A stretch of 64,000 nt of DNA, from the NCBI RefSeq assembly GCF_000143415.4, contig NW_003314326.1, forward strand, positions 687,827 to 751,826, written 5' to 3'. The position numbers and the translations under genes are program-made. Origin of the DNA: Selaginella moellendorffii (taxonomy: Eukaryota; Plantae; Lycopodiophyta). Shown in pieces: positions 7,121 to 55,215 of this stretch. How positions within the stretch are numbered: position 1 is the stretch's first letter; each line of letters starts with the position of its first letter. Below the pieces are notes generated by a model that searched no databases, was not told the origin of the DNA, and worked only from the letters and a program-made list of their open reading frames with translations.

Positions 7121-8354
7121 GATTGCTCTAAGTTTAAGCTTGTTTAAGTTTTCTAGTTTAGCAACTCTTTGCTTAAGACCTTTTTTTCGTCTAGGCCATT
7201 TTTAATTGTGATATGCAAAAAGGGAATTATAAATTCCATAAGCGGTAAAGCTTCCTGGCCATAAGTAAGACAAAATAGTGTCATGCCTGTGATTACTTTA
7301 TATGCAATCCTATAAACCCACAAAGCATCTAGGATTTACTTGTCTTAATCTTTTTTATTGTCGTTTACAATCTTTTTTAAGATATTCTTAAGCACTTTGT
7401 TAATAGATCCAACCTGGCCATTCCCTTACGGGTAATATAACATGGACTTTTTGTGCTTGAGGATAAATTCTTGTATAAAAATTTCTATTGTTTCATTGAT
7501 GAAATGGGTGCCTTTATCTATGATGATTTCTTTGGGCAAACCAAATCTTACAATGATGTTTTCATAAAAGAATTTGGTAGTGTTAGCAGCTGTGGCCTAT
7601 TTCATAAGCATAGTTTCTATTCATTTTGTCAAGACCCCCAACAAAATCAAGATTGGAAAATGTAGAAGACAAAGAGAAAAGCTAGTGGAAACGAAGGAGA
7701 CACTTTAGACTGGCATTGATTTAGATTGTGGAGAAATGGAACAAGGTTAACCTATATATACTATAGGTTGATGATGCTCCACCACTCTTGGATCGAGGAC
7801 GGCCTAGATATAGCTGAGGTCGACGAGGCACCACGTCATCATCAGGAATGTGGTTCGAGACTTAGGAATCATATGGGAAATCAGAGAGTCAAGAATAGGG
7901 AAGTGTCTTGAGAGTTAGGAATGTGGTCTACAGGTCAGGAATCTGGCAAGAGTCAGGAATGTGGCAAGAATTGGGGGATTCCTGACAACACCCCCTCCTC
8001 AAGAACAAGTGGAATGAGGATGTGAATGAGAACAAAGAGGAGGATGAGATGGGCGGGGAGGGACGGGAGATGGAGAATGAAAAGAATGAGGACTGGGATG
8101 AGAAGGATAGCAGCGGTGGAAGTCCTGAATAAGGTCAGGAGAATGAATTAGGTTGTCCGCAGGTTCCCAAGTGCGTTCCTCAGCTCCGTAACCCTTCTAG
8201 TCTACAAGATAGTAAAGTTTAGACCGTGAGATCTTGGAATCAAGGATGTCCTGAACCTCATACTCAGACCCATCCTCGAGCTACACTAGTGGAGGCAGAG
8301 GAATGACCGAATTTGGAATAGAACTAGGAATATAAGGTGTAAGCTCCTGAGTTT

Positions 8355-8412
8355 GGACTTTCCGGGAGGTCACCCAGCCTAGTACTATTCAAACCCAAGG
8401 ATGCTTAACTCC
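8355..8412 (-). promoter_or_regulatory. 5S rRNA-like internal Pol III promoter segment (box A/IE/box C region) in a Cassandra LTR; also present in the other Cassandra LTRs
   Basis: Minus strand gttaagcatccttgggtttgaatagtactaggctgggtgacctcccggaaagtcc matches plant 5S GTTAAGCGTGCTTGGGCGAGAGTAGTACTAGGATGGGTGACCTCCTGGGAAGTCC. Confidence 0.88.
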
Positions 8413-8887
8413 ACTATCCCAAGACCCTTAACCTTTGGAAAAGGGGGTGCACTCTTGTTCATGGGCCCTTTCCCTCTATATTTGAACCCCTATGGATCGT
8501 CTCTTAAGTTGTTCTCTTTGGTTGCTTACAATCCACCACGCTTCCCTGCAAGTTCAAGCCCTCGTGAACGGAAGCTGAGAGCCCCAGCTCTCCCGAGAGC
8601 CCTGCTCTCTTGACACCCTACCCCTTGGGTCGAGCCCAGCAGGAGCAAACTGGACCAGCCAGATGTCAATCAACATGTGGTGTGATTCCCCTAGCCAACC
8701 AACAGAGTCGGACACGAGACTGCTCCGATACCAAATGTAAGCTCCTGAGTTTGGACTTCCCGGGAGGTCACCTAGCCCAGTACTATTCAAACCCAAGGAC
8801 GCTTAACTCCACTATCCCAAGACCCTTAACCAATTGGAAAAGGGGGTGCACTTTTGTTCATGGGCCCTTTCCCTCTATATTTGAACC

Positions 8888-11800
8888 TGTAAGCCACAAA
8901 TTTTTCCTTTCCAATTTGCTAGCTTACCTCGTCTATCCGTCCAACACTGCCTTGGCTTTTGCTAAGTTCCCTTGCCAAGGTTCTCGCCTATGGTACCAGC
9001 TCCTACTTGGTTTCAGCTACTCACTACACGAGCAACGGAGTGTTAGCCATCCTTCCACGGATTCCCAAATCACTCCCAATCCCCCTCCCCGGGTTAGACT
9101 GGACTTAAGGTTCGGCTACACTCCCCGCAAGCACAAGCAGCCAAGCACACCAAGCTTCCAGGTTCCTAACATCCCTTGGTACCACAAGACTTGATCATGG
9201 GACCCTCTAAATCCCAAGTCTTGAGTGCAACACTTGCTTCGGGACGTCGGGGCGAAACACCGTGGCCTAGCGGCCCGGTATGGGTACCTCTCGCCCCCCA
9301 CTTCCATCCCGAAGGAAGGCCCAAGCCCCTAGGAAGGGCGAGGACCAATGAGCCGCATAGTACTCAAGTGGGGCACCACTCCACATGAGCCGGGAGCACC
9401 GCAATCGGTTTCCCTTTCGGGAGTGGGAGCTACTCTTGAGCACTTCCTTGGATGGCCCCTCCGGCACCAGCCAAGTCCATGCTCACTCCCACCCAAGGCC
9501 CCTTGGTCCCAGTCTCAACCTCAAGTCGGTTTAGGAGCTCCACTGGAGAGTCCCTTCAAAACTGGTTCCTGGACCTCACTATCCCTACTATACTTTTGGA
9601 ACCCCCTGCAGCCCCCCCCCCCCTGGGAGACACATGCTTTGGGCTTTCACCCCTTGACCCGTATTAGTACTGGGACTTAGTCTCTGGCTCGATCTCGGAT
9701 CCGATTTCGGATCCGACTTCGGATTCGGTCTCGGATTCGATCTCGGACTCGATCTCGGACCCGACCTCGGACTCGACCTCGGACTCGGTCTCGGACCCGA
9801 TTTCAGATCTCGGACTCCGTCTCGAACTCGGTCTCGAACTCGGACTCGAACTCGGTCCCCGAGTCGGTCTTGGACTCGATTCCGGACTCTATCTCGAACT
9901 CGGTCCTAGAGTCGGTCTTGGACTCGATCTTTGACTTGGTCCCATCCGATGAACTCTTTGTCATTTTGGTCATGCTTTCGGGGTTCCTTTAGCCTACGAC
10001 ACCTCGGCGAGTTGGTTCCTTACAACTCCACCACCCATAGAAGAAGTTCGATGCCCACATCGAACGTCTCTTTTTTATCCTACGACTTGTTGACCATGTC
10101 TCCGGGGGCATCCCCCCACTTAGCGGTGTGCCTAAGTCAGCCTCCCCGGCCAAGAGCCCATGACAACGGAATATAGGTGTCCCTATACTCCTCACCTCAC
10201 CACGCCCTAGTATGGGGTCGGGACTTGAACCCAGCCTTGCTTTACTAGGGGGTTGGGACTCGAACCCAACCTCTGTAGAATACGTCTACGGATTCGACAT
10301 CCCCGCAAGGAGTTAGGCGTAGCTCCCTACGCCTGGTTGACCTAGCTAACCCATGCTAATTAGCTTACCTTCGGCGCGCCTTCGGGTCCCAACATATGCC
10401 ATTGCTCAACTTCTCAAATTGATACTTTTAATTGAACTTTGCATAAGTACATAGAGTTCTACCATGCAGAAATTCCTCCACAAGATCTCGCGCGTTTGCT
10501 AGGTTCTCCTCCGGTTCCCATGTTGCTTCGCAGTGTGGAAATCCTTTCCACTTCACATGGAACTCTCTCACCTCGCGTCCTTGTCGCTTGCTCTTGCGCG
10601 CATTGAGGATGGCCTCGACTTCGTATTCCTCCTCCCCTTGGATAACCTCAGGTAAAGGTCTTACTTGGTCCTTGCGAAGCGGATCCTCAAAATACGGCTT
10701 GAGTAAGTTCACATGGAACACGGGATGCATCTTCCCCATCTCTCGAGGAAGTCGGAGACGGTAAGCCACTTTACCGATTCGAGCCTCAATCTCGTAAGGC
10801 CCCGCGAACCTGCTTAAGGAACTCAAGATCAATTCATTTACAGGAATACATGCATTTTTACCTTTGGGTCAACTTTCGGCTAATCCCACTTGGTAGCCTG
10901 AGGTTCTTGGTGTTCAGCCACACCTTCTCCCCAGCTTGGAACTCCACATCCCGTGTTCAACCACACCTTTTCCCTAGGTTGGAACTTTACATCTTGGCAC
11001 TTTTGGTTCGCGTACTTAGTTTGTCTTTGTTGAGCCCGTTCCAAGGAATCCCTCACTAGATTCCAAATGTTGAGTCTTTTCGCCGTGAATGCCTCCACTG
11101 CGGGTAACTCTCCATGATACTCGGCCATGCCGAGTTCCACAGGACCTTCAATAGCTCGCCCATTGATGACTTCCCATGGACTCACCCCGATGCTCGAATG
11201 TGGTGAGTTGTTATAACACATTTCCGCAAGTCCCAAATGACTTACCCAGTCGGTCTGGTCTCCCGAGACATAGCATCGCAAATAATCCTCCAGCTGCCTA
11301 TTCACCCTTTCCATTTGTCCGTCTGTCAAGAAGTGTTAGTGCCATCAATCTTGACTTAATACCCATTACCTGTCTGTGGGTGATAGGCTGTGCTGAATTT
11401 CAACTTGGTGCGATACTGTTCTAGGAGTGTCCTCCAGAACCTACTGGTGAAGATCTTATCTCGATCTGAGATAATCTCTTCCGGCCTTCCCCGCACTCGA
11501 ACCACTTGTTCGAAGAACAGCTTCGCCACACCTTCCGTTGCGCCACACCTTCTCTCGAGTTGTTCCCTTTGGTTGCTTACAATCCACCACGCTTCCCTAC
11601 AAGTTCACGCCCTCGTGAACAAAAGCTGAGAGCCGCAGCTCTCCCGAGAGCCTCGCTCTCTTGACACCCTACCCCTCGGGTCGAGCCCAGCTCTCTTGAC
11701 ACCCTACCCCTCGGGTCGAGCCCAGCGGGAGCAAATTGGACCAGCCAGATGTCAATCAACATGTGGTGTGATTCCCCTAGCCAACCAACAGAGTCGGACC

Positions 11801-12015
11801 CGAGACCCCTCTGATACCAAATGTAAGCTCCTAAATTTGGACTTCCCGGGAGGTCACCCAGCCCAGTACTATTCAAACCCAAAGACGCTTAACTCCAACT
11901 ATCCCAAGACCCTTGACCGATTGGAAAAGGGGGTGCACTCTTGTTCATGGGCCCTTTCCCTCTATATTTGAACCCCATGGACCATCTCTCGAGTCGTTCC
12001 CTTTGGTTGCTTACA
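8888..12015 (-). mobile_element. Hybrid retroelement: Cassandra 5' LTR, PBS and internal region (12015-11551) fused to family-A integrase, chromodomain, PPT and 3' LTR (11550-8888)
   Basis: A single TSD GAACC (8883-8887 and 12016-12020) flanks two different LTR ends; A-type LTR 8888-10024; chromodomain EEEYEVEAIL...FHVKWKGF...ATWEPEENL. Confidence 0.85.
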
Positions 12016-13072
12016 GAACCCCTATGGATCGTCTCTCAAGTCGTTCTTTTTGGTTGCTTACATAAGGCTTAAGAAGAGAGGAGTGAAAAAGGGGTGAATT
12101 TGATATAAGGAGGGAAGTGCAAGGTGATAGGTGATAGGATTAATGATAGCAGTGATAGGGAAGGACCGAGGTGCTTAAAATCAAGTTTGGGACATGGCCT
12201 GGTGGTGGAGATAGCTAGACTTTATCCCCTTTATTGTAAGGGGGACAATCCTGACGATGGACATTGGCAAATGTTTTGTGAGATTCCTGAGCACGATGGA
12301 GGTGGAAGGAGATGGAGTTGTGGATTTCTTGGAGGTTGGAGACAAATACCTCAAAGTGGGGATTTGAACGAGAGGATTTGGATGGAGAAGGAAGTGAGAG
12401 ATTGAATCAGGGATTTCGGCCAGAATTTGCAAAGAAGGGGGAAACTCAAAGGGAGGAGTGAACAGAGTTGTTACAGGAGAACTCAGCAAGGGGAAGGATA
12501 TCAAACCAGTCATTCTAATGATAGTTGATGAAGCACCTCAGGAATTGTTCCAACATCTGAATCGTTCGCTCGGACTGTCCATCAGTTTGAGGATGATACA
12601 CTGAAGCGAGGTTAGCCTTCACTCCAAGCAACTGATAAAACCGTTGCTAGAAATGAGAGATGAACTGAGGTCCCCAATCCAAAACCACATTTACAAGAAT
12701 TCCATGAAGTCGGAAAATTTCCCTAAATACCAATTTTGCCATGTCTTCGCCCGAAAACTCCTTGGTACACAGCAGGAAGTGCGCCATCTTTGTGAAGTGA
12801 TCCACCACAACTAAAATGCTGTTGAAGCCTCCAGAACTCAGAAGATCACTCAAGAAATCCATAGAGATGGATTCCGAGGAACCTGAAGGGACAGGGAGGG
12901 AATGAAACAAATCTGAAGGAAGGTGGTGAGGGACCTTATTCTAGGCGCAAGTGTCACAGGAGGTAACAAAAGCTTTGATGTAGTCGTCTATGTGAGGCCA
13001 CCAAAAGTCTTGTGCAACCAGCTCATAGGTTTTTGCAATGCCAAAGTGACCAGCAGTCGGGCTATCATGGCA

Positions 13073-16400: not shown

Positions 16401-18304
16401 TTTGTGGTGGCAGCCCAAACCTGATCTGTCTCACCAAAACATGCTTCGAGCTTCTTTTTGAACAACCGAAGATCCATCAGCTCTGGAACCACGACCCCTT
16501 TCATGCTCTTCTCCATGAGAGGAGAAAACCATGACAAAGCTGCACCTTCAAGCAACATCCCAATCGCGCCAATTTGAGACTTAGAAGTGGGGTACTGCCG
16601 ATGTTGAAGTGCGAAGATTAGCTCCATCTGGTTCAGGAATCTGTGAAGCTCCGAATGTTTGCCTAAGAACTTCGCCGGGAAACTCACCTTCGGCTCAAGA
16701 ACTCTACTTGATCCTTGAGCTGAAAGTGAAGCAAGCACCTATTGCATGTGAAGAAGGGTTGCCTTCAGCTCGGTATTCTTAGACTAGATTTTTGCAAAGA
16801 CTTCAGCAAAAAAATCAGGATGGCTTGGAGACTCCATCGGCAAAGAAGAAAGAAAAAGGGGGAAAAAGGGGGAAAAAGGCAAAGGCAGTCAAACAATCAA
16901 AACAAGCTAAAGCAAAAGCAAAAAACACAACCTGAATCAAACTGTCAGGACCTCTAACAAGATCAGGACTGGAAAATGCAGAAGACAAAGAGAAAAGCTT
17001 GTGGAAACGAATAAAAAGCCTTAAACTGGCATTGATTCAGATTGTGGAGAAATGGAACAAGGCTAACCTATATATACTATAGGTTGATGGATCAAGGACG
17101 GCCTAAATATAGTTGAGGTCAAGGAGGCGCCACATCATCATGAGGAATGTGGTTTGAAACTCAGGAATCATACAAGAAATTAGAGAGTCAGGAATAGGGA
17201 AGTGTCTCGAGAGTCAGGAATGTGGTCTGTGGGTCAAGAATCCGGTGAAAGTCAAGAATGTGGCAAGAATTAGGGGATTCCTAACACATTTAGTCACATA
17301 ATTAGTGGTGACTAAAATGTATTTGTTCCTCTTATTGCTTGTTATTATAAATTCTACAAAATCCAATCCCCATTTATGAAATGCTTCATATGGATAGGTA
17401 GGATTTAGTTCGTGGATTTGTTTTTTAGACTGCAATTTATTCATTTAGCAAATATCATAATTTTTGCAAAAAATTGTTGTGTCTTTCTAAAGTGTAGGCC
17501 ACTACAACCCTACTTATAAAACTTTACTTGCAGTGATTTCATCTACAAAATGGCCTCCTAATGGGTTAAATGAGCTTCTTTTAGGATTTCACTCCTTCTT
17601 GCTTATTAACATATCTCCTTAGTGTTCTATTGATGCCTAATTTATATAGATGCTTCCCCACGACAGAGTAAGGTTGTGTCCTTAAAATAAATTTCTCTGG
17701 TGAGTTATAGTGAGCTGGAATAGTGCTTGTAAAAAGATAGATTTATATATCTTCCAACCAAGTGGTAGGCACAGTGATTGCAAATAAGTGAACATCTAGG
17801 AGTTCGTCCGGTTTAGGGTTTAGAGCATCTGTAACAATATCAAAAGTATCCACTAGTAGGTGAAACTCTTTTGTCCAATTTGGCTTAACAAGTATAAGTG
17901 TCTTTTTAAGGCATTGTTTAAGTCTTAAAAATTCTTTTATATAAATGAAATATCTTTCTTTAAAAGATCAGTAAATGGCTTGGCAATTTTTGTGTTAGCT
18001 TTTATAAAACGCTTATAATACCCAATATTGCTTTGAAAGCAACATAGACTTTTCAAATTATGTGGTAGATAAATTATTTTAATTACTTGAGTTTTGCTTT
18101 TGTCTACAAGGATGCCTTTGTGAGACACAAATCCCTAAGCCCCAATTTGGAGCCGAAAGGGCACCACATGGTGGTGGCTGAAGTGAAAGCCAAACGAGCG
18201 TAACACGTTTGGATTGAAAGCTAGGTCAAGAGCGGGAGTGAAACTCTCAACGAAGTGCTCAAGGAACAAGCACGAAGTGAGCGATAAGTGAGTCTCTAGA
18301 AAAA

Positions 18305-18622
18305 GGACCCGAGATGGAGTTTGAGATGGTGTCCGAGATGGAGTCCGAGCTGGACCCGAGATGGACCTGAGATGGAGTCCGAGATGGAGTCCGAGATGGA
18401 CCTAAGATAGACCCAAGATGGAATCTGAGATGGAGACCGAGATGGACCAGAGATGGACTTGAGATGGAGTCCGAGATGGAGTCCGAGATGGACCTGAGAT
18501 GGAGTCTAAGATGGAACCGGGACCGAGACCAAGACCGAGTCCAAGTTCGAGGGCGAGACCGAGGCCGACACCGAGACCGAGTCCGAGTCCAGGTCCGAGT
18601 CCGAGTTCGAGTCCAAGTCCGA
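18305..18622 (+). repeat. Hexamer-based tandem array (GAGATG/GAGTCC/GACCGA) in the family D LTR; longer copy at ~23675-24260 and related arrays in family A LTRs
   Basis: Visible 6/12-bp periodicity; source of many spurious low-complexity ORFs. Confidence 0.9.
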
Positions 18623-21063
18623 ATACTAATACAGGCAGTTGGGTGAAAGCCCAAAGCGATTGTCCCCCAGGGGGGACGGGGGGGGGGGCTGCGGGGGGTT
18701 CCAAAAGTATAGTAGGGAGAGTGTGGGGGTTGGATCCCAGTGGAGCTAGTTTAGCCAGGAAAGGCTAGTTTGGCCCAGGAAGGCTATGCCCAGGTGCTGG
18801 GTGACGGGATAACCACTGGGAAGTCCAAGGCTAGAGTGAATACGAATTGACAAGTGGGGTAGCTTGGTAAAGTGTTCAAGAGCTGGCTCATACCCCCCTG
18901 GGAGATCGACTAGCCGATGCTCCCAATCCAAGTGTGGGTGGCACTACCTACTTGGATACCTGGTGTGGCTCAATAGAACTCGCTCTAAGCCCATGGCTAA
19001 AGCACCCAAAGGCGAAAGGCAGGGAGAGTACCCATGAAGCCCACATAGGGCCACAGTGTTTCGAAATGTTGTCCTAAAGTCCTAGATTGTGGAAAGGAAG
19101 AGGAATAGTCCTCTAGTGTGGTGACCAAGGATACAGTCATACGGTGAGGAAGTCCTAGAGGATAGTGGGACTTAGTGGTCGGGCTTGTGGGCCTTGATCC
19201 AGTGGTAGTGTTGGCAAACATGGCCATGGACAGAAAGGGACTTAGTGGGGACCAGAAAAAAGATATTTAGGAAGGCTATTCCCCATGTTTGCGGGCATCC
19301 AAAGGATGCTAAGGAGTGGATCTGGGATAATCACTCATGGACAGATGGCCCAGTCTTTGAGAGACGGGATTGCAATGCAGGTGGTGTTGGACCACCGGTG
19401 TGACCAAGGTGAATGGGCATAGCTATAGTGTAACGGGCTGATATGTCGGTGGTACCTTAGGGTGTCGGTCATGGGATCGGACACGTGGAGCACTTGGACC
19501 AAGTGCAAAGGTTGAGTGGTATGGATGCCATTCTCGGGGATAGCAAGCCCCAAGTCTGGAATAGGACTTATGGAGGTTGTGAGTGAGACTCCTCCAAGTA
19601 GTCAGAGGTGTAGTTAAGTGACTAAAGTAGAATGGAGAAATTAATCACGTACAACTTGGTATTGGAATTGTTCTTTAGTCCGACTTTTATTGGTGCTCAA
19701 GTATATCACCGCTAGTGTTGGCAGTGGAAGGTCCTAGGAGTGGGCCTATCCTTGAGGAGTAGCAGGTCAGGAAAACATGGCTCTCCACTACAATTCATGT
19801 GTGAACTTGTAGGTGAAGCGGTGGATAGAAAAGGGCCAATAACGGAACAACTTCAGGATCTTGGGAACAGTATAAGGTTTTCCTCAGAAAGTTGAGGATG
19901 TGATCTAGATGAGCTTTTGACTTAGCAAACTAGTTAATGTAGTTGTGGTAAACAACTATAGTTGGGATCACGAGAAAGATAGAAACTCCAAAATAATAAA
20001 GGAGTCACAAGATTATCCTCACATAGTTGAGGCTGGTGCTCATGAATTTGAGACTGGAATTGACGACCGTGAAAGGTCAAGTACGGATGAGGACACAAAT
20101 TCTTGGGGCTACCTTTTATAAATGCTAGAACAAACCCAAGGAGTTGGGGTTGTGCTCAAAGGATGAGTCAATATTCTCATCATATGGACGGATAGTCCTA
20201 AGGGGCAAAGATAGCCCATAGATAACAGAAAATAATAAAGTCTTGGAGTAACACTTGCAAAGATGGTCCTTATGAGTAAGACATGAATACACGAAGTTGT
20301 ATTTTAGTGAGCTGGCACCTCAAAATAAGACCTTGCGGGTCAATGGGTTAGCAAAGTCCAAAAATGCTGGATGACTCGAGTAGAATCAAGAAATGGTCTA
20401 AGGGATTGGTAAAAAGCATTTGGACTAAGGTGTGTTGTGCCCTACGAAGGTTGGGGAGGATCATAAGATTCAAGTATGAGAACAGTGAGTATCTCATCGA
20501 TGGCAGAATGTGCCATACTAAAGTTGTGGGAAAGGTGTTCCCATAAGAAAACAACTTTGATACAAAGTTGTGCATAAACTCTATTGTGCAGTGCAAATGG
20601 ATAGTTGGCATGAAAAAGAACTGTATTGGACTTGGTAAGGACCTAGACACAAGTAAAAAGTGTCATAAAAGTAGGCTCATGGAGCCGATGATGTGGAGAC
20701 ACCAAATGTGCTAAGGCGTGATGCATTAAGGTGAAATTGGCAAGTTCACGAGAACCCTTTCCCAAAGGAATCCTAATGGAAATGGGAATAGCATAGCCTA
20801 AGCTGAAAGGCATGCCGTTAGAGGGTGGTGACCGAAATAATGATGGAGGTGTGGAAGCACCAGTAATGAATTGTAGGACTTGACAACTATGAGGTAACTA
20901 AGCAAAATGTGCAAAATAATTGGTTAAACTGGTAGAAGGTAATTACCTAAGGCTTCTTATTAGGATAAAGAAGTTAAATATACCCTTATAGGGGATAAAT
21001 TGTTTATGTTGTGATATAGTAAGTAAATGTCATAAAGGGAATGCTCATTGTCAAAAGAGGCCA

Positions 21064-21207
21064 NNNNNNNNNNNNNNNNNNNNNNNNNNNNNNNNNNNNN
21101 NNNNNNNNNNNNNNNNNNNNNNNNNNNNNNNNNNNNNNNNNNNNNNNNNNNNNNNNNNNNNNNNNNNNNNNNNNNNNNNNNNNNNNNNNNNNNNNNNNNN
21201 NNNNNNN
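21064..21207. other. Assembly gap (N run)
   Basis: 144 Ns. Confidence 1.
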
Positions 21208-24200
21208 GACTTTGTGTCACGCTCCCCCTCTCAACCGCAGGTCGCAGTGAAGCCAAAAGCAAGTACTAAAGGGATAGAACCGAACCATGGGAATCAACGG
21301 GCATAACCAAGGGTGGTTATGCAAGTTGAGAGTGGAGAATCAAGCGGGTGCTTGAGCATGTTGTTACTAGCGACCGGGATGCCATGGAGAGTCTAAAACA
21401 GAGGATTGTTCATGTTAGACTATATGGCAATTGGAAAGCTTGCGAAAGAAAAGGCTTTAACAAGCTAAGGAACAGAGTTCCTTGAAGGTTCCCCTAGGTA
21501 GATAAGTACCTTGAAATCCAAGTGTAAATGGTTCATAGGGCGCGCGAAATCAAAGTGGCACAGTAGAAGCGTGGTCTTGAAGCTTGCTAAGAGGCGAGGC
21601 TATCAAGGTTAGGGAAGTAGTTGTCGAGTGTTCAAAGAGAGGGCTTTGAACGAAAGTCGATGGTTGAGGACTTTCACGCTTATACATGAACCATGTTACA
21701 GTTGTCGGATGACTTGTTAAGTGAGATTGGCAAGTCAGGGGAACAAATACCCTAGTTGAAGGAGCCAACTTCAAAGGGGTGGCCCATGGGGCCAAGCATG
21801 GAGGAGTCCATGCATGATCATAAACTTATCAAGTGAGAGGATTTGGTAGTGTGGAGGAACTAGGTTCCTAAGCTGTGATCTGTAGTGCATTTTAAGTATA
21901 AGTTGGTGTACTGGCATGGGAAGTCACACCAGGCATTCAGTGTGATGCCGTCCATAAATGCATATACGAAGGTTGGGTTTGAGTCCCGACCCTCTAGTGC
22001 TTGGGTTCAAGTCCCAACTCACTAGGGTGCAGTGATGGTTTGGAATATGAGGACACTCATTTTTTGATGGTCATGGACTCTTAGTAAGGAGACTAGCTTA
22101 GGCACACTGCCAAGCGAGGGATACCCCGAAGTCATAATACACAGTTAGATTGCTTAGTGTGGCTCGGCATATTTAACTTGAACACTTTGGTGCAAGTAGC
22201 ACCAAGGGTGTGGTGAATGAGATGGGGACACCCAATCTCAGTTGCTATGGACCCTTGGCAGGAAGGGCTGGCTTGGGTGCACCGCCAAGTGTGAGGGATG
22301 CCCCCAGGGTCATGGTCAACAATTTAAAGGTTTGGAAGACTTAGTATCTATTGGCAAACTTAATAAGGTGTCGAGGCTAAATCACTAGGTGACCTCACGA
22401 CTAAATAAGGATAAGGTCTTTGTGAGGTTAAGGAATAAAGTTCCTAATTCAAAGTGTCAACTTAAACTATTGATAATGGTGTGGCTTAGTCAAAATGACC
22501 AAATGGGAAGGACACCAAAAGGGAAATCAGTTGTGCCAATATGATGGTATAGCGAGTCCAAGAAAGTGGCCTCTAGGAAAGACCTATGGGAGGGTCACAA
22601 AGTTGGGCTATTGATGGAGCTTAATGCTAAAGAGACCTCCTAGGGGTGAGCACCCTCTGGACTTGGCAAAATAGAGCCTTTACCATGGAACCAAAATGAT
22701 ACTTCGAGAATGGAGGTAGTGATCCTATATTGCTTGGTGCAACAATCAACGAATAGGAGCAAAAGAATAGTGGCTAAGAAAAAAGCCATGGGAATCATGG
22801 AAAAGAATCCAGATGGCAAAGTTAGGCCAAAACACTAAAGTGTTGGGTGCTAACAGATTGTGGGAAAAGCAATGTGTTTCCAAGGATGGATTCCCAATTG
22901 CTTCAATTTGGCGAAAGCGGAAGCTTTAGAGGAAGGAGCGGTAAGGTAGCCAAATGATATAGCCATAGACAACCTTAGCACAAATTATGATAACTGGAAC
23001 TTAGTGCCAAAGGTGGCACGAAATCAAAGAGAGGATGATGGTGCCCTCAAGTAGAGAACTTCTTAAGATGGGGAAGTGGAGTTGCACCATATGTGTAATG
23101 CAAGGTGTCGGAGACACTTAGGAAGTTGACTCTGAGAAGTTAAAATTAAAAGTTCCAAAGTGCAAAGGTTATATCGATAGAAACTGAGACTACTCGAGAA
23201 TAAGTAATAGGATTGATATAGAGAAGGTGTCTCTAACAAGTTTAGTGAGAACTAAACTAATAAAAAGAGAGAACCACCACAAGTGGTCGAATAAGCCTCT
23301 AAGTTGGAGAGACTATGCTCCTTAGAAGATAAGCAAGGCATGATGAGCCTTTAGTATCAAACCATTGACGAATATGGGCAAAAGGCCAAGGATGGAAAAG
23401 GTAATACAAGTTGGTATTACTTTATAAAATAGTTTATCGTTCGATGAGGACATCGAACTTCGTCTATGGGTGGTGGAGTTGTGAGACACAAATCCCTAAG
23501 CCCCAAAGTGGAGCCAAAAGGGCACCACGTGGTGGTGGCAGAAGTAAAAGCCAAATGAGCGTAACATGTTTGGATTGAAAGCTCTAACTTGAAAGGTCAA
23601 GAGCGGGAGTGGAACTCTTAACGAAGTGCTCAAGGAACAAGCACGAAGTGAGCGATAAGTGAGTCTCTAGAAAAGGGACCCGAGATGGAGTCTGAGATGG
23701 TGTTCGAGATGGAATCCAAGCTGGACCCGAGATGGACCTGAGATGGAGTCTGAGATGGAGTCCGAGATGGTGTTCGAGATGGAATCCAAGCTGGACCCGA
23801 GATGGACCTGAGATGGAGTCCGAGATGGAGTCCAAGATGGACCCGAGATGGAGCTGAGATGGAATCCGAGATAGACCCGAGATGGACCCGAGATGGAGTC
23901 CGAGATGGAGTTCGAGATGGACCTGAGATGGACCTGAGATGGAGTCCAAGATGGACCCGAGATGGACTCGAGATGGAGTCCGGGATGGAGTCCGAGATGG
24001 AGTCTGAGATGGAGTCCAAGATGGACCCAAGATGGAGTCCGAGATGGAGTCTGAGATGGAGTCTGAGATGGACCCGAGACGGAGTCCGAGATGGACCCGA
24101 GACAGAGTCCGAGATAGAGTCCGAGATGAACCCGAGATGGAGACCGAGATGGAATTGGGACCGAGACTGAGACCGAGACCGAGACTGAGACCGAGTCCGA

Positions 24201-30615: not shown

Positions 30616-30807
30616 ATGGCATGAGGCCTCATGCCATCTTTGGCCCTTGCTAGCCTATTGCCATATTCCTTTTGCCTTGCTGCAACTGTATATATTTTTG
30701 TATGGGTGACTAGTCACGCACACAAAAATATATACAGTTGCAGCAAAGCAAAAAGAATATAGCAACAGGCTAGCAGGGGCCAAAGATAGTGTGAGGCCTC
30801 ATGCCAT
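30616..30807. repeat. 192-bp loop-less fold-back (96-bp arms) upstream of the transposase
   Basis: Arms 30616-30711 and 30712-30807 are near-perfect reverse complements centred on gtgactagtcac. Confidence 0.9.
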
Positions 30808-45049: not shown

Positions 45050-46580
45050 TCAAACAAGAAAGAGGGGTTTTGGCGAGCTCGAGGACGATGACGATCTTTT
45101 TCCCTCAAAGAAGGTACTACATTTTCTTTCTCTCTCCTCTGGTTTAGAAACTTGCAAATGTGAAGGAAAAGCTCACAAAAGGAATCGTGTATCTTGCGTG
45201 TAGATTTATGGATCAGCAGTGGCCGCGGGAAGTGATCACGCGACTACTACCATACTCAATCTTCGCGGCAGGTAATCTTTCTATCACGTATAGCTTCCAA
45301 ACTTGCGCTTCTTTCTCATGTAGTTTAGAAGAGCGTGATGGGACCATTGCATCACTAAAGGTATATTGCAAAGCAGCACAAGCTCTTTGATACAGTTCAT
45401 CGCTTAGCTTCCTTTGGCTTTTGGCAGGCTGACCTTGCCACTGCCAATGGAGAGCTAGACAAATGGAGGAATTTGTTTCAAAGTGGAGAGTCAGTTCTAC
45501 CAGAAAACTCAACTTCAGGTCTATCAACTTACCTTGTGTTTGCTTACTGTTCTGATATGTATGTTGTTGTTAGATCCTCGGCTGATCTTGGATCATATAA
45601 AATCTCTCCAAGCATCCCAAGCTCGTGTGAAAGACCAGGTTCACAAGTTTGGCGTTGCGAGTTGTGCATTTTCCTTGTTCTTTTTGTTTCTGATCGAGTC
45701 TTCTTTGTCGTTTCACAGCTCGCATCATCCAGGCGCAAGGAAACTGCCATGCTGATCCATTTGTCAAACAAGGAACAAGAAATTGCAGAGATGAAGGCAA
45801 GTCTTTCTTCAATGTTTCTTTTTTTTTTTATGTTTTTTATTTTGTTATAAACGCAATGGCACTTTAGACTGTCGTTCACGATTTGAAGCTTTCGTTGAGG
45901 CCTCCAACGCTTCAGGTACTCGTGTATTTTCCAGGCTAGCTAGTGATCTTACAACTTTGTTTGGTCGCAGTCTCGTCGTCTTTTGCTGGATCCTGCTATA
46001 CATGTAGAATTTACACGTATGAAGGTTAGTCTTTTCCAGACAATGGTAACACTGTCTGAGGTTGTGACTTCAAAGTCTAGAAGGAGCTGGAAATTGCGAA
46101 AAAGAAGGCCAAAGAGCTGACTGACGATCTCGCCGCTGTCCAGTTCACTCCGCACAGTAAAAACGGCAAAATGCTCATGGCAAAGTGTCGTACGCTGCAA
46201 GAGGAAAACGAAGAAATAGGGAGGGAGGCTTCGGAGGGCAAGGTTCGTGTCTTTCCGGTATCTTGGACTTGTTTCAAGCAGAACGTTACAGATACATGAT
46301 CTGGAAACAAGGCTGGCTGTTCAAAAGTCGTTGAGCTCTGAATTGAAACGTGGTTATCAAGGTTTGTAATCGCACAACGAATCTCCTGAGCGTTCTAAAG
46401 GTTTAAAATGTTGCGCCAGAGCTGTTTCGGTACGTCCGTGATCTCAATGAAGAGACGGAGAGGATGCAGCAAATGGTACAAGCTGGGAGGTTTATTTTCA
46501 AAGCTTTGACATGTTTGTATTGGACACAGGTGCGTATACTCCAGAATCAAGTGGAGCAAAAGGACTGGCAAACGGTTTAG
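45050..46580 (+). pseudogene. FIP37: FIP37/WTAP (m6A writer complex subunit) homolog; intron-containing, 5'-truncated and decayed
   Basis: Exons RKRGFGELEDDDDLF, DPRLILDHIKSLQ, SRRLLLDPAIHVEFTRMK, LAAVQFTPHSKNGKMLMAKCRTLQEENEEIGREASEGK and IHDLETRLAVQKS; no in-frame ATG before the retroelement fragment; early frameshift. Confidence 0.88.
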
Positions 46581-48490: not shown

Positions 48491-51400
48491 TGTAAGGAAC
48501 CAACTCCCTGAGGTGTTGTAGGCTAAGGGATCCCTGAAAGCATGACCGAAATGACAAAGAGTTCATCGGATGGGACCGAGTCTGAGATCGAGTCCAAGAC
48601 CGACTCTGAGACCGAGTTCGAGATAGAGTCCGAAATCGAGCCCGAGGCCGATTCGGAGACCGAGTTTAAGACTGAGTTCAAGACTGAGTTTGAGACAGAG
48701 TCCGAGATCCGAGATCGGGTCCGAGGTTGAGTCTGAAGTTGAGTCCAAGATCGGGTCCGAGATCGCATCCGAGATCGAGTCCGAAATCAAATCCGAAGTC
48801 GGGTCCGAGACCGAGTCCGAGTACTAATACAGGTCAAGGGGTGAAAGCCCAAAGCGTGCATCTCCCGGGGGGGGCAGGGGGGGGGGGGGGGGGGCTGTAG
48901 GGGGTTCCAAAAGTATAGTAGGGATAGGGAGGTCCAAGAACCAGTCTTGAAAGAACTCTCTAGTGGTGCTTCTAAACTGACTTGAGGTTGAGACTGGGGC
49001 CAAGGGGCCTTGGGTGGGAGTGAGCATGGACTCGGGTGGTGCCGGAGGGGCCACCCAAGGAAGTGCTCAAGAGCAGCTCCCACTCCCGAAAGGGAAACCG
49101 ACTGCAGTGCTCCCGGTTCATGTGGAGTGGTGCCCCACTTGAGTACCTTGTGGCTCATTGGTCCTCGCCCTTCCTAGGGGCACTTAGCTAAAGCCAAGGC
49201 AGTGTTAGTCAGATAGACGAGGTAAGCTGGAAAATTGGAAAGGAAAAATTGGTGGCTTACAATTTGGTATCAGAGCCTTTTCCTCAGTTCTAGCGAAGGA
49301 TAAAGGCGGATTGCTGAGAGATGGCAAAGGCAGGGTGTAAACGAACCAAGGCGGAGACAGAGCTGGAGCCTCTAGTCGAACAAGAGGCTATGGATAAGGA
49401 ATCCTTGCATGAGGAGGACTCTAGCGAGAAAACTTCCAAACAGGAGTCCGGTGGCGAGGTTCGGTCATCCAAGACTCGATTGGACATTCTAGAAGGATAA
49501 TTGGCACAGACCAATGCCCTGCTGGAGACTCTCATACGCAAGCTAAAGCGTGATGAGAAGCGGAAGAAAAAGAGAAAGACTGCGGATGCTGGCAGCGCAA
49601 AAGTTGCAGACCCTTCGGTAGGAACGGAGGCAGAACCAAACAAGGTCGAACAGACCGAAGTGGAATCAGTCCCTCAGGAAGTTCCCAAGTACAAACCAAA
49701 GCCCCCACCGGTCTTCAAAGGAGTGAACGACTATAAGGTGGTGGAGGATTGGTTTTATAATATGGAGGACTACTTTCGAGCGTTGCGGTTACCGAGCTCA
49801 GAGAAAGTCCCATATGCAAAACCATACTTGGCAGATAATGCCAAGTCTTGGTGGAGAATGACAGAGGCCAACGAAGGACCGGTGGCCACTTGAGAAATGA
49901 TGAAGGTGAAGATCCACACGACTTACGTTCCTCTGAATGCTACTCTGCATCTAAGATATGAGCTGAGTAGGCTGAAGCAGACCGGAACCATTTAAGAGTA
50001 TGTGAATGGGTTTATGGCAAAGAGGATACTTGTCACGGACATGGGGGATATGGATGTGTTCCATGCCTTTATATCAGGCTTGCAAACCTGGGCTCGCGGT
50101 GAGGTGATGCGTTGGAACCCGACCAACTACAAGGAAGTGTTGGATGCGGCCATCAAGGTGTATTTCAACGATCACCTACGAAAGGGGAACACGATGGGGT
50201 CGGGGTCCATGTTTAGCAAAGGGGCCAACCAAAGGGGAATGTATAGCAAAGGGAAATTCAAAAAGAGTTTCTCTAAGAATGAGTCCTTGGGGTTCCGGTA
50301 AGGCAAATCCGGTGGCCAGCGAGCAAATATGTGGGGAAGTCAAGCAAAAAGAGACAAACCCACGGATAAGAAGGTCAAGTTAGGTAGTAACGTGGAAAAC
50401 AACGTATGCTACAACTGCAGTGAAGCATGACACTTTTCAAGGGAATGTTCCTACCCGAAGAAGGCCAAAGCCAATATGGCCATTTAGTCGGGTGAAATCC
50501 AAAATGAGGTATGTGATCCAGTCCCTAGCTCAAAGTTACTCATTACACGAGCAACTTTGGTAGAGAGTTGTTCGCGACATCTACTAGCCCTCCGAGGGAA
50601 ACTCGGAGGTAGCTTTGTTAAGATCTTTATTGACATCGGTGCTTTGGATAATATTGTGGCTGCAAACATAGTCTGGCAAGCCGGACTAACGGTGCAGCGG
50701 CTGGATGAATCAAGGACTATAGAGTTTGTTCAAGGTAGCCAAAACATCAATGTACTTCGACAAGCGAGAGTCGAAGTAGGGACATGGAAAGTATACATGG
50801 ATTTCACCGTATTGGACATGGCGGGATTTGACGTGATCTTCGGGATGAATTGGTTCAATCGGTTCATGGTAGCCCTGCATGGACAAGGTAGGAACCTTGT
50901 GGTACTAGCGAATGCCCAAGGAAGAAAATCCAGGGTGGAGGCCCAAGATCTAAAGATAGGGCAATGCAAGGCCAAAGATTCCTGTTTAAACTTGGTGTCC
51001 ACGAGAGGACAACTCACTAAAGGAATCAAGGTTGCATTTTTGTGCTTACTCTCGGCGAAGAGTGATAAAAAGACGGGAACGGAAGAAGTACCTTTAGTGA
51101 TCTAGTGGGTGTTGGACCAATTCTAGGATACCATACTAGAGGAGCTATTGGCAGGGTTGTCCCCCGCACGACCGATAAAACATAAGATTGAGCTGGTCGA
51201 GGGTGCTGAGGCGGTGGTTCGTCCCCTCTATCGTTTGGATGAAAAAGAACTCGAGGAGCTCAAGTGCCAACTAGAAGAGTTGGTGGACAAAGGGTATGTT
51301 AAGTTGAGCAAATCGCCGTATGGGGTGCCAGTGTTATTTGTGAAAAAGAAAGATGGATCTATACGCATGTGCATAGACTACCGGCTGCTCAACAAATATA

Positions 51401-54400
51401 CAAAGAAGAACAAGTACCTTTTGCCAAGGATTGAGGACCTGTTCGATAGGTTGGGAAAAGAAAAATACTTCTCGAGGATTGACCTAAGGTCAGGATACTA
51501 CCAGATCAGGGTAGCAGAGGAAGATGTCGAGAAAACAACCTGTCGAACAAGGTATGGGAGATTTGAGTTTCTGGTGATGCCCTTTGGGCTATGCAATGTG
51601 CCGACAACGTTTCAGGCGTTGATGAACCACATCTTTGTACCCTATCTGGATCACTTTGTGGTCGTCTATATTGACGACATCCTGATCTATAGCAAAACGC
51701 TAGAGGAGCATGCTGAACACTTGACAAAGGTGTTTGAGAAACTAAGGGAACACCAGCTATATGCTAAAGAGAGCAAATGTGACTTTGCTTAACAAGAGGT
51801 AAAGTTTCTCGGGCATGTGGTGGGCAAGGACGGGCTCAAGGTGGACCCTGAGAAGGTCCAAGCGATCCAGGATTGGGAGCGACCATCGAATGTACACGAG
51901 TTAAGGGCATTCTTGGGGCTATGCAACTACTACCGAAAGTTTATCAAACACTATTCGAGAGTAGCCCTGCCCTTAACAGACCAAACGGGAAAAGGGAAGA
52001 TGGTATGGACAGCAGAATGCAAGGCGGCATTTGTCCACCTCAAGGGGAAGTTGAGGAAGGCTCTCGTGTTGGCATTACCAGACTTTGGTAAAGACTTTGA
52101 GGTAGAAACGGATGTTTCAGACTTTGCGTTGGGCATAGTTTTGAAGCAAGACAACCATCCAGTAGTGTTCTTCTCGAAGAAGTTGGACAAGGCTCAACTG
52201 AAATGGCCTGCCCACGAGAAGGAATTATTTGCGGTGGTCAAGGCGCTCAAAGAGTGGTGACACTACCTTGGGAGACACTTCAAGGTTTACACGGACAATG
52301 TGGCAATGAAACACTTCTTGTCATAGCCTGACCTGAGAGGGAAACAGGGTCGGTGGGACGATGCTTTGGCCGAGTTTAATTGCAAGATTCTGTACAAGCC
52401 TGGGAAGAGCAACATCGTGGCAGATGCACTAAGTCGAAAAGCAAGCTTGAAGTTGGCAATATCCAGCGTGACAGCAACCTTTTGGGATGATGTGCGAATA
52501 GCATATGAGAATGATGGTCTAGCACAAGAAGTGTTACTGAGAAATCTAGAGGCACAGGAAGCTCACCAGAGAGGTGAGCTGCCAACGGAAGAGAAAACGG
52601 GCTATGCAGAACGCAACGGACTCATCTATTACAAGCAAATAAGGGTGTATGTTCCAGAAGGGGAACTAAGGAAGGTAGCCTTAGAAGAGTGTCATGACGG
52701 ACCTCTTGCGGGACACGGCAGTGCTTACTCAAGAGGAAGTACCACTGGCCAAATATGGCTAAGGACGTCCAAAACTATGTAAAGACATGTCCAACATGTC
52801 AGCAGGTCAAAGCCGTGACTAAGGCTAGTGGGGTCTTGTTACAAAGCATCCCAATTCTAGATCATCTGTGGAAATGTCTTATGATGGACTTCATCACGGG
52901 ACTCCCCCCAAGTGAGGGGTTTGATGCGATATTCATGGTGGTGGACCGATTTTCGAAGATGGCACATTTCATACCCACCACAACGGAAGTGGATGTGGAA
53001 GGTGTGGTAAAGCTGCTCTTCGAACAAGTGGTTCGAGTGCGGGGAAGGCCAGAGGAGATCATCTCAGATCGAGATAAGATCTTCACTAGCAAGTTCTGGA
53101 TGTAGCGCACCTTATCTCTCTCCCCTTAAGCCAATTGGAAAAGGGGCAATTGCTTGATGAGAGAGCCCTTAGTGGCTAATTTATCCCCATTTATCCTCCA
53201 AGGTTCCAAGGATCCACGGTGACAGTATATCTAAATCTCATCGCATGATCACATGCGCTACACTCACCCCCCCTTCAGAGATGTCAATGTCCTCATTGAC
53301 TATTGACTAACAACCCCTACTGAGCCAAGGGGAACCAGCACCTCCATTTCTGCACTAGATCTACCAATCCTCTACACTCACCCCCCCACGGTGACAGTAT
53401 ATCCAAATCTCATCGCATGATCACATGCGCTACACTCACCCCCCTTCAGAGATGTCAATGTCCTCATTGACTATTGACTAACAACCCCTACTGAGCCAAG
53501 GGGAACCAGCACCTCCATTTCTGCACTAGATCTACCAATCCTTTACACTCACCCCCCCTTCAGAGATGTCAATGTCCTCATTGACTATTGACTAACAACC
53601 CCTACTGAGCTAAGGGGAACCAGCACCTCCATTTCTGCACTAGATCTACCAATCCTTCTATTGTGTAGATCAGCTATTCCATGTGAGGCAACTAGTCATC
53701 CACCCGTACCGCAGTCCCATGGTGGATACTCCACACAAGAGGAATGACGTACGCATGGATGCCCAATATGTACAATTTCAAATTTAGGGGTAGGAATATA
53801 CCTTGCTCAAGGGTATATTATACTTTTAAGTAGCCACTAATCAATGGGAATCGAACCCGTGCTATTTGCTCCGATACCAACTGTAGCGCATCTTATCTCT
53901 CTCCCCTTAAGCCAATTGGAAAAGGGGCAATTGCTTGATGAGGGAGCCCTTAGTGGCTATTTTATCCCCATTTATCCTCCAAGGTTCCAAGGATCCACGG
54001 TGACAGTATATCCAAATCTCATCCCATGATCACATGCGCTACACTGGAGAACTCTCCTGGAACAGTATCGCACCAAGGTGAAATTCAGCACAGCCTATCA
54101 CCCACAGACAGGTAATGGGGTATTAAGTCAAGTTGGATGGCACTAACATTTCTTGACAAATGGACAAACAGAAAGGGTGAATAGGCAGCTGGAGGATTAT
54201 TTGCAATGTTATATCTTCGGAGACCAGACTGATTGGGTAAGTCATTTGGGACTTGCGGAAATGTGCTATAACAACTAACCACACTCAAGTATCGGGGTGA
54301 GTCCATGGGAAGTCATCAATGGGCGAGCTATTGAAGGTCCTGTGGAACTTGGCGTGGCTGAGTACCATGGAGAGTTACCTGCAGTGGAGGCATTCACGGC

Positions 54401-55215
54401 GGAAAGACTCAACATTTGGAATCTAGTGAGGGATTCCTTGGAATGGGCTCAACAAAGGCAAACCAAGTATGCGAACCAAAAGTGTCAGGACGTAGAGTTC
54501 CAACCTGGGGAGAAGGTGTGGCTAAACACCAAGAACCTAAGGCTACCAAGTGGGATCAGCCAGAAGTTGACCCAAAGGTAAGATGCATGTATTTCTGGAA
54601 ATGAATTGATCTTGAGTTCCTTAAACAGGTTTGCAGGGCCTTACAAGATTGAGGCATGAATCGGTAAAGTGGCTTACCGCCTCCGACTTCCTCGAGAGAT
54701 GGGGAAGATGCACCCAATATTCCATGTGAACTTACTCAAGTCGTACTTTGAGGATCCACTTCGCAAGGACCAAGTGAGACCTTTACCTGAGGTTATCCAA
54801 GGGGAAGAGGAATACGAAGTGGAGGCCATCCTCAATGCGTGCAAGAGCAAGTGACAAGGACACGAGGTGAGAGAGTTCCATGTGAAGTGGAAAGGATTTC
54901 CACACTGCAAAGCAACATGGGAACCGGAGGAGAACCTAACGAACGCGCGAGATCTAGTGGAGGAATTTCTACAAGGCAAAACTCTATGTACTTATGCAAA
55001 GTTCAATTAAAAGCATCCATTTGTGAAGTTGAGCAATGGCATATGTTGGGACCCGAAAGCGTGCCGAAGGTAAGCTAATTAGCATGGGTTAGCTAGGTCG
55101 ACCAAGCGTAGAGAACTACGCCCGACTCCCCACGGGGATGTCGAATCCGTAGACATATTCTACGGAGGTTGGGTTCGAGTCCCAACCCCCTAGTAAAGCA
55201 AGGTTGGGTTTAACC
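48491..55215 (+). mobile_element. Ty3/Gypsy chromovirus 'family A', 3'-truncated, with an intron-containing integrase
   Basis: 5' LTR 48491-49261 (TGTAAG..CTTACA); PBS-iMet tggtatcagagc 49265-49276; single-frame gag-pol from 49321 with point stops. Contains zinc knuckle CYNC..H....C, protease FIDIGA, RT YIDD, RNase H, integrase and chromodomain. Ends at a (GA)n run near 55216. Confidence 0.93.
53101..54043 (-). mobile_element. Second TRIM family ('F') inserted in the family A integrase
   Basis: 162-bp LTRs 53101-53262 and 53882-54043 (TGTAGCGC..GCGCTACA); TSD CTGGA; PBS-iMet 53868-53879; PPT gaagggggggtgag. Confidence 0.92.

Follow-up and report, generated by a model that had tools for sequence, protein, structure and literature searches.

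Cassandra TRIMs are short, non-coding LTR elements characterized by a 5S promoter region, a Met PBS, a PPT and a 5-bp TSD (PMC4079214, PMC7215508, 10.1101/2023.07.14.548913, PMC10886601, PMC10946416). In the passages of this literature drawn on here, their length ranges from about 560 to 970 bp, their hosts are listed as ferns and angiosperms, and 81 of them are covered in one study (10.1101/2023.07.14.548913). Their partners are called unknown (PMC7215508), and PMC10886601 states that nothing indicates which family is responsible. The sources returned by our literature search, in the parts available, name no Cassandra helper and no lycophyte Cassandra. The element of the spikemoss Selaginella moellendorffii described here is of the same type by these features and, at ~593 bp with 194-bp LTRs, resembles the fern size class, whereas its host is a lycophyte. 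The tips of the pear Cassandra, as given in PMC4079214, agree with the spikemoss tips in the first five bases only, and thus the helper of Cassandra need not be of the same lineage elsewhere.

For other TRIMs, too, sequence in common with an autonomous element has served to infer the helper (Gao et al. 2016, PMC4717578). The 11 pairs described in that account share whole LTRs (79-98%), whereas Cassandra and the candidate helper discussed below, family A, share cis-signals only, together with a physical chimera. Eight Selaginella TRIM subfamilies are reported there, two of them common to other plant families; the Selaginella pair, with LTRs of 104 bp, is distinct from the element described here. 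Family A itself appears to be like SM1-Galahad, a chromovirus of the Galadriel clade from the same host (Novikov et al. 2012, PMC3350952), a match made by described features and not by sequence: an LTR of >1 kb with a poly-G tract, a Met PBS, many deleted copies, and a chromodomain encoded by a short ORF of its own that follows the core integrase. The pertinent sections of that paper mention neither an intron nor a link to a TRIM, whereas family A has likely introns.

Two precedents exist for LTR elements of mixed parentage. In the complexes of Sabot and Schulman (2007, PMC1950507), two LTR elements are fused in sense inside one 5-bp TSD, as at the present locus, and co-packaged RNAs are the explanation offered. 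Those complexes have same-family partners, near-identical outer LTRs and a switch at R, whereas the unit described here has LTRs of families unrelated in length, a middle LTR reduced to a 29-nt stub, and one internal domain that is cut; it is not a member of these template-switch complexes. In the intermolecular second-strand transfer modelled for HIV-1 (PMC5651808), the 5' LTR and leader would derive from one RNA and the 3' part and LTR from the other, an arrangement that the present unit matches. That model, as its text presents it, was inferred from recombinant strains of one virus and not from a fixed insertion, whereas the partners here are a TRIM and a chromovirus sharing only tips, PBS and PPT.

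Anatomy of a mixed-LTR unit

The window (the whole stretch of 64,000 nucleotides of the S. moellendorffii assembly that was analysed) contains a 3.1-kb unit with a Cassandra front half and a family A back half, lying inside one 5-bp TSD that interrupts the 5' LTR of an older Cassandra. The older copy is designated C1 and the Cassandra portion of the unit C2.

8333..8337, no strand: C1 outer TSD TAAGG, left copy
8338..8530, minus: C1 3' LTR with 5S-like core
8531..8735, minus: C1 internal domain; PBS near 8733, PPT 8531-8541
8736..8887, minus: C1 5' LTR, larger piece, cut at GAACC
8883..8887, no strand: inner TSD GAACC, left copy
8888..10024, minus: family A 3' LTR, 1137 bp, with poly-G tract and 12-bp tandem repeats
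10025..10039, minus: family A PPT
10428..10868, minus: integrase C-terminal SH3-like domain and chromodomain (Pfam PF24626, PF00385)
10810..10861, minus: 52-nt GT..AG insert in integrase, likely intron (predicted)
10910..10993, no strand: 43-bp tandem duplication, missing from both other A pieces in the window
11323..11369, minus: 47-nt GT..AG insert in integrase, likely intron (predicted)
11371..11537, minus: family A integrase core piece, up to the break
11524..11552, no strand: A-to-Cassandra joint with 12-nt repeat, A-templated spacer and 2 to 4 nt of microhomology to Cassandra
11553..11581, minus: first 29 nt of the second (3') LTR of C2; 1/29 mismatches against the C2 5' LTR, 3 to 4/29 against three other LTRs
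11582..11821, minus: C2 internal domain; PBS near 11819, 35-bp duplication 11648-11726, PPT 11582-11592
11822..12015, minus: C2 5' LTR, complete (194 bp), with 5S-like core
12016..12020, no strand: inner TSD GAACC, right copy
12021..12062, minus: C1 5' LTR, remaining 42 nt; 3/47 mismatches and no gap against the C1 3' LTR, 5/46 and a gap against C2
12063..12067, no strand: C1 outer TSD TAAGG, right copy

The unit reads, in order, Cassandra 5' LTR, PBS, internal domain, 29 nt of a second LTR, a templated joint, the 3' half of the integrase, the chromodomain and the 1137-bp A LTR. The earlier note had described GAACC as directly flanking a unit that ends in Cassandra at 12015 and in family A at 8888, and the sequence bears this out: the repeat, at 8883-8887 and 12016-12020, abuts TG at 8888 and CA at 12015, so that the unit begins and ends exactly at LTR tips and the TSD enclosing the whole of it is perfect. 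The duplication is 5 bp with no extension to 6 bp, and the chance of such a match is 7.8e-4. The outer LTRs, 194 bp and 1137 bp, are unequal and come from different parents, each of them pure. The Cassandra end, which had been described as an LTR, does include one and is more than that, comprising LTR, PBS, internal domain, PPT and 29 nt of the second LTR. Family A, in turn, lacks ~3.7 kb of its internal domain.

C1 consists of 8338-8887 and 12021-12062, ~593 bp without the insert, with 194-bp LTRs and its own 5-bp TSD, TAAGG. By mismatch counts the 47-nt stub groups with C1 and the 29-nt stub with C2, and the unit is therefore neither a local copy nor part of a tandem array. C2 as a local copy of C1 was also rejected on 4.7-7.3% divergence and private indels, as was the idea that A entered tandemly arrayed Cassandras and that a 47-bp duplication arose by chance, given how the stubs sort. 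The Cassandra internal domains are short (205-240 nt) and non-coding, with Met PBS and PPT present. Rfam RF00001 matches all three Cassandra LTR copies scanned, with E values of 0.00056-0.016 and scores of 26.8-32.3 bits that fall short of the gathering score of 38; the right-end 194-bp LTR gives 32.3 bits (E 5.6e-4), and a scan at the gathering threshold gave no match. In sequence run X22, 122 reads match Cassandra at 88% likeness and none at 99%; many continue into 5S rDNA and a few lie on the internal domain. The 150 nt behind a further Cassandra copy, C3, have no homologue within the window.

At the internal joint, the 12-mer CGCCACACCTTC occurs at 11524 and 11541 only. A duplicated sequence around a filler, cgttg, of the end-joining type had been proposed here; the duplication is present, whereas a random filler was rejected, the 5-nt spacer being a copy of family A sequence 12 nt away. 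An insert copied from the flank plus short microhomology is the TMEJ signature, which has been described in plants in these terms (PMC10923293, in the passage concerned); a slip of the reverse transcriptase is a possible alternative.

Signals common to Cassandra and the family A clan

Comparison with family A draws on two further stretches of the window.

19656..19826, plus: diverged homologue of the Cassandra internal domain, from PBS to PPT, behind the family B 5' LTR (z 8.0, 0/300 shuffles)
48491..55213, plus: degenerate family A copy used for comparison, with LTR, Met PBS, gag, PR, RT, RH, IN and chromodomain

The gag-pol copy at 48491 has its PBS at 49265 and another TRIM nested at 53101-54044; its 5' LTR is matched by the LTR at 8888-10024. 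The order PR, RT, RH, IN, Chromo is that of Ty3/gypsy, the chromodomain lying in a separate short ORF and carrying, as judged by eye, aromatic residues of the group I type. The best 120 of 7864 matches to the family A RT were without lineage labels and mostly from Asteraceae, at ~60% likeness. All A pieces in the window are truncated. Family B is a non-coding relative of A, with A's PPT and pieces of its 3' UTR in common and no pol shown.

Near-identical tips, a common iMet PBS and similar PPTs in Cassandra and A had been proposed, and the window sequence agrees as quoted. The LTR tips are identical at 12 of 13 nt, and the 3' tips share the 7-nt GCTTACA. A family matching the Cassandra termini better was sought and none was found among three other window families, which score 9, 8 and 5 of 13; the comparison covered these three, leaving out SM2-Galahad, SM-Tcn1, SM-Fogey, SM-Diluvium, SM-Cranky and all copia elements. 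The chance figure of 1.1e-5 for the tip likeness overstates the case because real LTR tips are not random, the unrelated family D scoring 8/13 against Cassandra. The PPT core followed by TGT occurs at only four places in the window, namely C1, C2, A and B. For an LTR motif, which was chosen after being seen, the five best non-Cassandra matches are all A or B LTRs, and four of these exceed the top score of all 10 shuffled windows. In contrast, the Met PBS, which the earlier note had counted as a link, has no discriminating power: one is also present in a further TRIM of the window, and Met PBSs are reported for all five Selaginella families described in PMC3350952, in the sections drawn on. When C2 is compared with 4.5 kb from the 5' part of A, no exact match is longer than the 14 nt at the PBS; the spacer between LTR and PBS is 2 nt in Cassandra vs 3 nt in the sole A copy.

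The best non-Cassandra match in the window to the Cassandra internal domain is the family B leader. A's own leader has no likeness to this domain beyond the PBS (z 0.0), and no remnant of a Cassandra LTR is demonstrable behind the PPT-like end of the B leader (97/1000 shuffles; z 1.3). The tips, PPT, LTR motif and B leader constitute, as judged from sequence, a link between Cassandra and the A clan that stands apart from the hybrid. The claim that family A mobilises Cassandra holds to this extent: these four signals support A as the best helper candidate, and the helper role itself is only likely.

Origin of the unit

We propose, tentatively, that the unit was one cDNA from a family A particle, formed by PBS plus-strand transfer between molecules, integrated once and later shortened by ~3.9 kb. 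Cassandra RNA would have been packaged together with A RNA, and Cassandra plus-strand strong-stop DNA would have annealed via the shared Met PBS to the A minus strand rather than to its own, giving the product Cassandra LTR-internal-LTR-PBS-A internal-A LTR. The A integrase would then have taken the Cassandra U3 tip, so similar to its own, together with its own U5 tip, making one TSD. Finally, a single deletion of ~3.9 kb, sealed by polymerase-theta-type end joining, would have taken out 165 nt of that middle LTR together with the PBS and everything from gag to the middle of the integrase. In a variant, the joint might have been made in the same reverse transcription by a non-homologous jump from A RNA to the Cassandra U3; this would require the same particle and the same transfer, and A would be the helper of this Cassandra in both versions.

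Normal reverse transcription of one chimeric RNA was rejected, as it would yield equal LTRs where the unit has two pure different ones; PMC6894440, in the portion concerned, likewise holds that such a pair cannot come from a recombinant RNA in a single normal cycle. The recombined co-packaged cDNAs invoked earlier are thus a possible route that requires plus-strand transfer between molecules. In a model of PBS-mediated transfer of this kind, the resulting provirus has two LTRs that differ in origin (PMC5651808), and reverse-transcription products with three LTRs inside a single TSD occur in plants (PMC1950507). A precursor of three LTRs that later lost DNA once is no more complicated a history than two half-site integrations. 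Counting against the proposal, the second transfer of HIV is described as generally intramolecular (PMC5651808), and non-autonomous elements are argued to use any available machinery (PMC13570524), each as stated in the passages at hand. The PBS joint is unseen at the locus because the proposed deletion would have removed exactly that joint. The proposal rests on one locus.

Repair after insertion, with no shared particle and either of two orders of nesting or capture, is an unlikely source of the unit that nonetheless draws on several features of the window. In one version C2 inserted normally at GAACC, and A DNA afterwards took the place of its 3' LTR via the shared GCTTACA 3' tips. This DNA would have come either from a nested A that two deletions had trimmed or from a fragment of A cDNA captured at a break; the exact use of the A tip would be explained by a natural cDNA end. 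In the other, A came first, Cassandra nested within it, and two deletions followed, one of them between the 5' tips. Nesting and deletion are widespread in the window, where all A pieces are cut and other elements often contain Cassandra or interrupt it (C1, C3). The joint resembles chromosomal end joining, and in run X1 two contigs connect A integrase with a Cassandra end (20-nt side). Only five exact 7-mers exist between the lost 164 nt of a Cassandra LTR and the last 300 nt of the A LTR, and the 3' tip pair is among them; the 5' tip pair lies on one of six diagonals holding a 13-mer at ≤1 mismatch. Against repair, two or three extra events are required, one exactly tip to tip; in the 5' case 551 exact matches of at least 6 nt compete, and the best (14 nt, PBS) went unused. 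Furthermore, repair leaves the shared PPT, LTR motif and B leader unexplained, though these can hold without the hybrid. Under this alternative the hybrid is silent on the helper beyond the tip likeness.

Integration with donor ends from two molecules is familiar from in vitro work. A corresponding event here, in which a Cassandra cDNA and a full or stalled A cDNA each supplied one end for concerted integration by A integrase and the inner ends were trimmed and end-joined, is doubtful, and more so than repair. It would give the exact outer tips, the one TSD and the repair-type inner joint in one episode with no PBS transfer, and a stalled A cDNA would explain the missing A 5' part. It needs, on the other side, loss of 165 nt from one molecule and ~4.9 kb (1137 + 3735) from the other, and no plant case was found in the literature, in a search not aimed at this route alone. 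Taken over the two routes that need it, one-step insertion of this unit by A integrase is probable. The earlier claim that this enzyme inserted both ends together is likely to the same degree, although the tip likeness also offers microhomology for post-insertion repair and nesting is common.

Mis-assembly is very improbable: the window is repeat-rich, with a 144-nt N gap at 21064-21207, and no contig bridges a joint among the matches listed, but an error would hardly make an in-register 5-bp duplication splitting C1, separate C1- and C2-type stubs and a flank-templated joint.

Twenty-four public sequence runs were considered, three of them with half or more of the words. Among the matches listed, no bridging piece was found at the joints other than the left one at 8888, either at 88% likeness (X1, X4, X6 and X22) or at 99% (X1, X2, X3 and X6, with 2839, 2489, 1000 and 91 pieces, 32 of them listed). 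In the comparison at 88%, no splicing of the two likely integrase introns was seen. All four 99% runs have zero depth at the plain host flank 12064-12085, and the blank at the joints is therefore evidence neither way. The A half differs at 18/1174 nt from X4 contigs in five of the eight X4 rows, a figure that leaves out a second variant of one stretch, one Cassandra row (16/152) and one host row.

Implications for Cassandra mobility

Returning to the single-cDNA proposal, it may be, though we stop short of calling it probable, that the intron-bearing Galahad chromovirus clan is the spikemoss Cassandra helper, packaging its RNA, recombining with it via the shared primer site and integrating the chimeras. 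The locus would then preserve the trace of one such particle, family B would be a chimera of Cassandra and Galahad that is older and went on to multiply as a separate family, and the unit at 63058 might be a third.

Cassandra is among the most widespread plant TRIMs, with an autonomous partner stated to be unknown in the passages concerned (PMC7215508, PMC10886601), and a Cassandra-type element in a lycophyte would fall outside the host range given in that literature. With a helper candidate now named in a small genome, and its predicted joints countable in any long-read assembly, the question becomes directly testable. If the proposal is true, the clan would become, in the literature searched, the first helper to be named for a Cassandra, and the locus would document in a genome that plus-strand transfer can take place between families that are unrelated. 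If the particle route is true, LTR finders that require two like LTRs would miss mixed-LTR units, and mixed-LTR insertions in one TSD would become a general means of matching non-autonomous elements to helpers with which they have no LTR sequence in common.

Structure of the hybrid locus

DNA comparisons were made inside the 64-kb window and against public sequencing runs. The unit described in the earlier note, in which a Cassandra LTR and an LTR of the chromovirus family A lie inside a single GAACC TSD, is present in the assembly, and its two GAACC copies (8883-8887 and 12016-12020; a 5-bp match expected by chance at 7.8e-4) interrupt the 5' LTR of an older Cassandra copy, C1. The host site of C1 is another gypsy element; its TSD is TAAGG, and its LTR pair shows 9 differences in 193 nt and one gap. 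All elements of the locus read on the minus strand, and the hybrid, whose Cassandra part is termed C2, is arranged as follows.

Components of the hybrid unit
12015-11822, minus strand: full Cassandra LTR (C2 5' LTR)
between 11822 and 11581, minus strand: C2 PBS, then internal domain, then PPT
11581-11553, minus strand: 29 nt of a second Cassandra LTR
11552-11524, minus strand: Cassandra-to-A joint
between the joint and 10024, minus strand: chromovirus integrase, 3' half, including domain matches to SH3-like and chromo domains, then 3' UTR and PPT
10024-8888, minus strand: family A LTR, 1137 bp

A 5S-like core was found in all three short-LTR copies scanned, with a best score (32.3 bits) below the Rfam cut-off. 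The 29-nt stub has one mismatch to the C2 5' LTR and three to four to three other LTRs, and the right-hand 47-nt piece groups with C1. Since these same-locus stubs sort to C2 and C1, respectively, C2 did not arise as a local copy of C1 and does not belong to a tandem Cassandra array, and the GAACC TSD is real in this assembly.

Of the inner joint, previously read as a duplication around a 5-nt filler, the duplication and its repair-like signature stand, but the filler is not foreign: against the window's intact A copy, it is A's own sequence from 12 nt further on. This spacer is reached via CTTCC-type microhomology, 12 nt are then copied again, and Cassandra is met at 2 to 4 common bases. A slip of reverse transcriptase may also yield such a joint. 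Flank-templated inserts and short microhomology mark polymerase-theta end joining in Arabidopsis, where kilobase-size deletions are reached (PMC10923293). The joint does not separate the routes to the hybrid.

Routes to unequal LTRs in one TSD

One normal reverse-transcription cycle on a chimeric RNA gives equal LTRs (PMC6894440), and plant three-LTR complexes likewise end with equal LTRs (PMC1950507); the hybrid, with unequal outer LTRs, is not a member of that class. Pure, unequal LTRs in one TSD need another route, and the weights we attach to the candidates are judgements rather than computed values. The leading candidate, which we put a little short of an even chance, is PBS-guided plus-strand transfer between molecules, so that the hybrid would work like a template-switch or strand-transfer chimera. 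A Cassandra-Cassandra-A precursor would have formed and afterwards lost about 3.9 kb (165 + 3735) in a single deletion. In favor of this route, only one later event is required, and no exact stretch common to C2 and 4.5 kb of A is longer than the 14-nt PBS. Such transfer has been modelled for HIV, although the usual plus-strand transfer there stays within one molecule (PMC5651808).

A later exchange at the LTR tips is possible but less probable. Nesting is common in the window, and the tips offer substrates, the 3' tips being one of five exact 7-mers within reach and the 5' tips one of six near-exact 13-mer diagonals; the 5' tips, however, compete with 551 matches of at least 6 nt, and two or three events, or cDNA-end capture at a break, would be required. 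The entry of two cDNAs in one integration seems unlikely; under this route, as under plus-strand transfer, A's integrase would act on a Cassandra end. Mis-assembly we consider very improbable; no contig among the matches listed at 88% or 99% likeness spans the inner or right joint, but in all four runs at 99% depth is likewise zero over ordinary host flank (12064-12085), so the lack of a spanning contig counts neither for nor against the joints.

Signals shared by Cassandra with families A and B

Family A was compared as a helper with three other families of the window: B, D (an unrelated LTR family) and a second TRIM. The Cassandra 5' tip is matched at 12 of 13 nt by A, 9 by B, 8 by D and 5 by the other TRIM; all three A 5' tips are alike, and four of six Cassandra 5' tips score 12, the remaining two 11 and 10. 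At the 3' tip the matches are 7 nt (A), 4 to 6 (B), 3 (D) and 4 (other TRIM). Four sites in the window, in C1, C2, A and B, have the PPT core with TGT directly behind it. The five best outside matches of a 31-nt Cassandra LTR piece are all A or B LTRs (scores 36, 35, 32, 32 and 28), where the best score per shuffled window was 26-31 (n=10) and the motif was picked post hoc.

Several observations count against A as Cassandra's special partner. A's own leader shows no likeness to the Cassandra internal domain past the PBS, LTR and PBS are separated by 2 nt in Cassandra but by 3 nt in A, and all five families of PMC3350952 have a Met PBS. In beet chromoviruses, PMC3605345 notes PBS spacers of at most 3 nt. 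The proposal that A's integrase inserted both ends together, making A the Cassandra mobiliser, is partly supported: the common tips, PPT and LTR motif favor A as helper candidate, and tip exchange after insertion is a minority rival.

Family A agrees with SM1-Galahad as described in PMC3350952, a comparison by description only. Its integrase contains two GT..AG inserts, 10810-10861 (52 nt) and 11323-11369 (47 nt), which occur in degenerate form in the A copy at 54044-55213 and are likely introns; no spliced joints were seen among the public-run contigs aligned.

Family B
18119-25289: LTRs of 1.5-1.8 kb, 89% alike; 3.8-kb internal part including 144 N

Family B carries A's PPT and pieces of its 3' UTR, six A protein pieces gave no tblastn match to pol in its internal part (144 N inside), and it may be flanked by an old TSD in which two transitions have occurred; this non-coding relative of A resembles a LARD belonging to the A clan. 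Behind its PBS, at 19656-19826, the Cassandra internal domain is present over its whole length as a diverged, colinear copy with a Cassandra-type PPT at its end (z 8.0, 0 of 300 shuffles; z 6.5 without the PBS). This Cassandra-like leader is new in this analysis.

Other features of the window and the Cassandra helper

The stretch 63058-64000, whose left flank is ATATC inside an RT gene, opens with a further Cassandra copy, C3, present as a 5' LTR, a PBS and some 40 nt of its internal domain. Next come 150 nt that have no homologue in the window and close with a G-rich tract; a B-type LTR starts at 63445 and runs past the window end. The arrangement may represent another mixed-LTR unit, or simply two nested insertions. 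C4 (57123-57880) is an old, A+T-shifted Cassandra copy with internal duplications. The other TRIM (53101-54044), nested in an A integrase, has a Met PBS, by eye a tRNA B-box-like motif directly behind it, and a PPT closer to family D's than to A's; its sizes disagree with those given for Helenus-1_SMo in PMC10886601. A 96-bp inverted repeat (30616-30807; arms perfectly abutting, 90% complementary) lies beside a DUF7869 ORF (31902-33821). Host sequences include a RED/SMU2 exon at 803-1498 (98% identity to S. moellendorffii proteins over the aligned stretch, next taxa at most 83%) and a multi-exon gene at 45200-46600, which by eye we take to resemble FIP37/WTAP.

Cassandra's partners are called unknown in PMC7215508, and PMC10886601 states that nothing indicates which family is responsible. 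PMC4717578 reports partners for 11 of 289 TRIM subfamilies via whole-LTR likeness, its Selaginella pair having 104-bp LTRs, and PMC13570524 argues for generalist mobilisation. Ferns and angiosperms are the hosts named in the relevant parts of PMC10946416 and 10.1101/2023.07.14.548913, and pear Cassandra tips (as given in PMC4079214) are unlike those of the window past the first five bases. Our search, which covered few subscription papers, found no named Cassandra helper or mixed-LTR Cassandra unit. In this plant, one ambiguous locus and several shared signals yield countable predictions for the question of Cassandra's helper.
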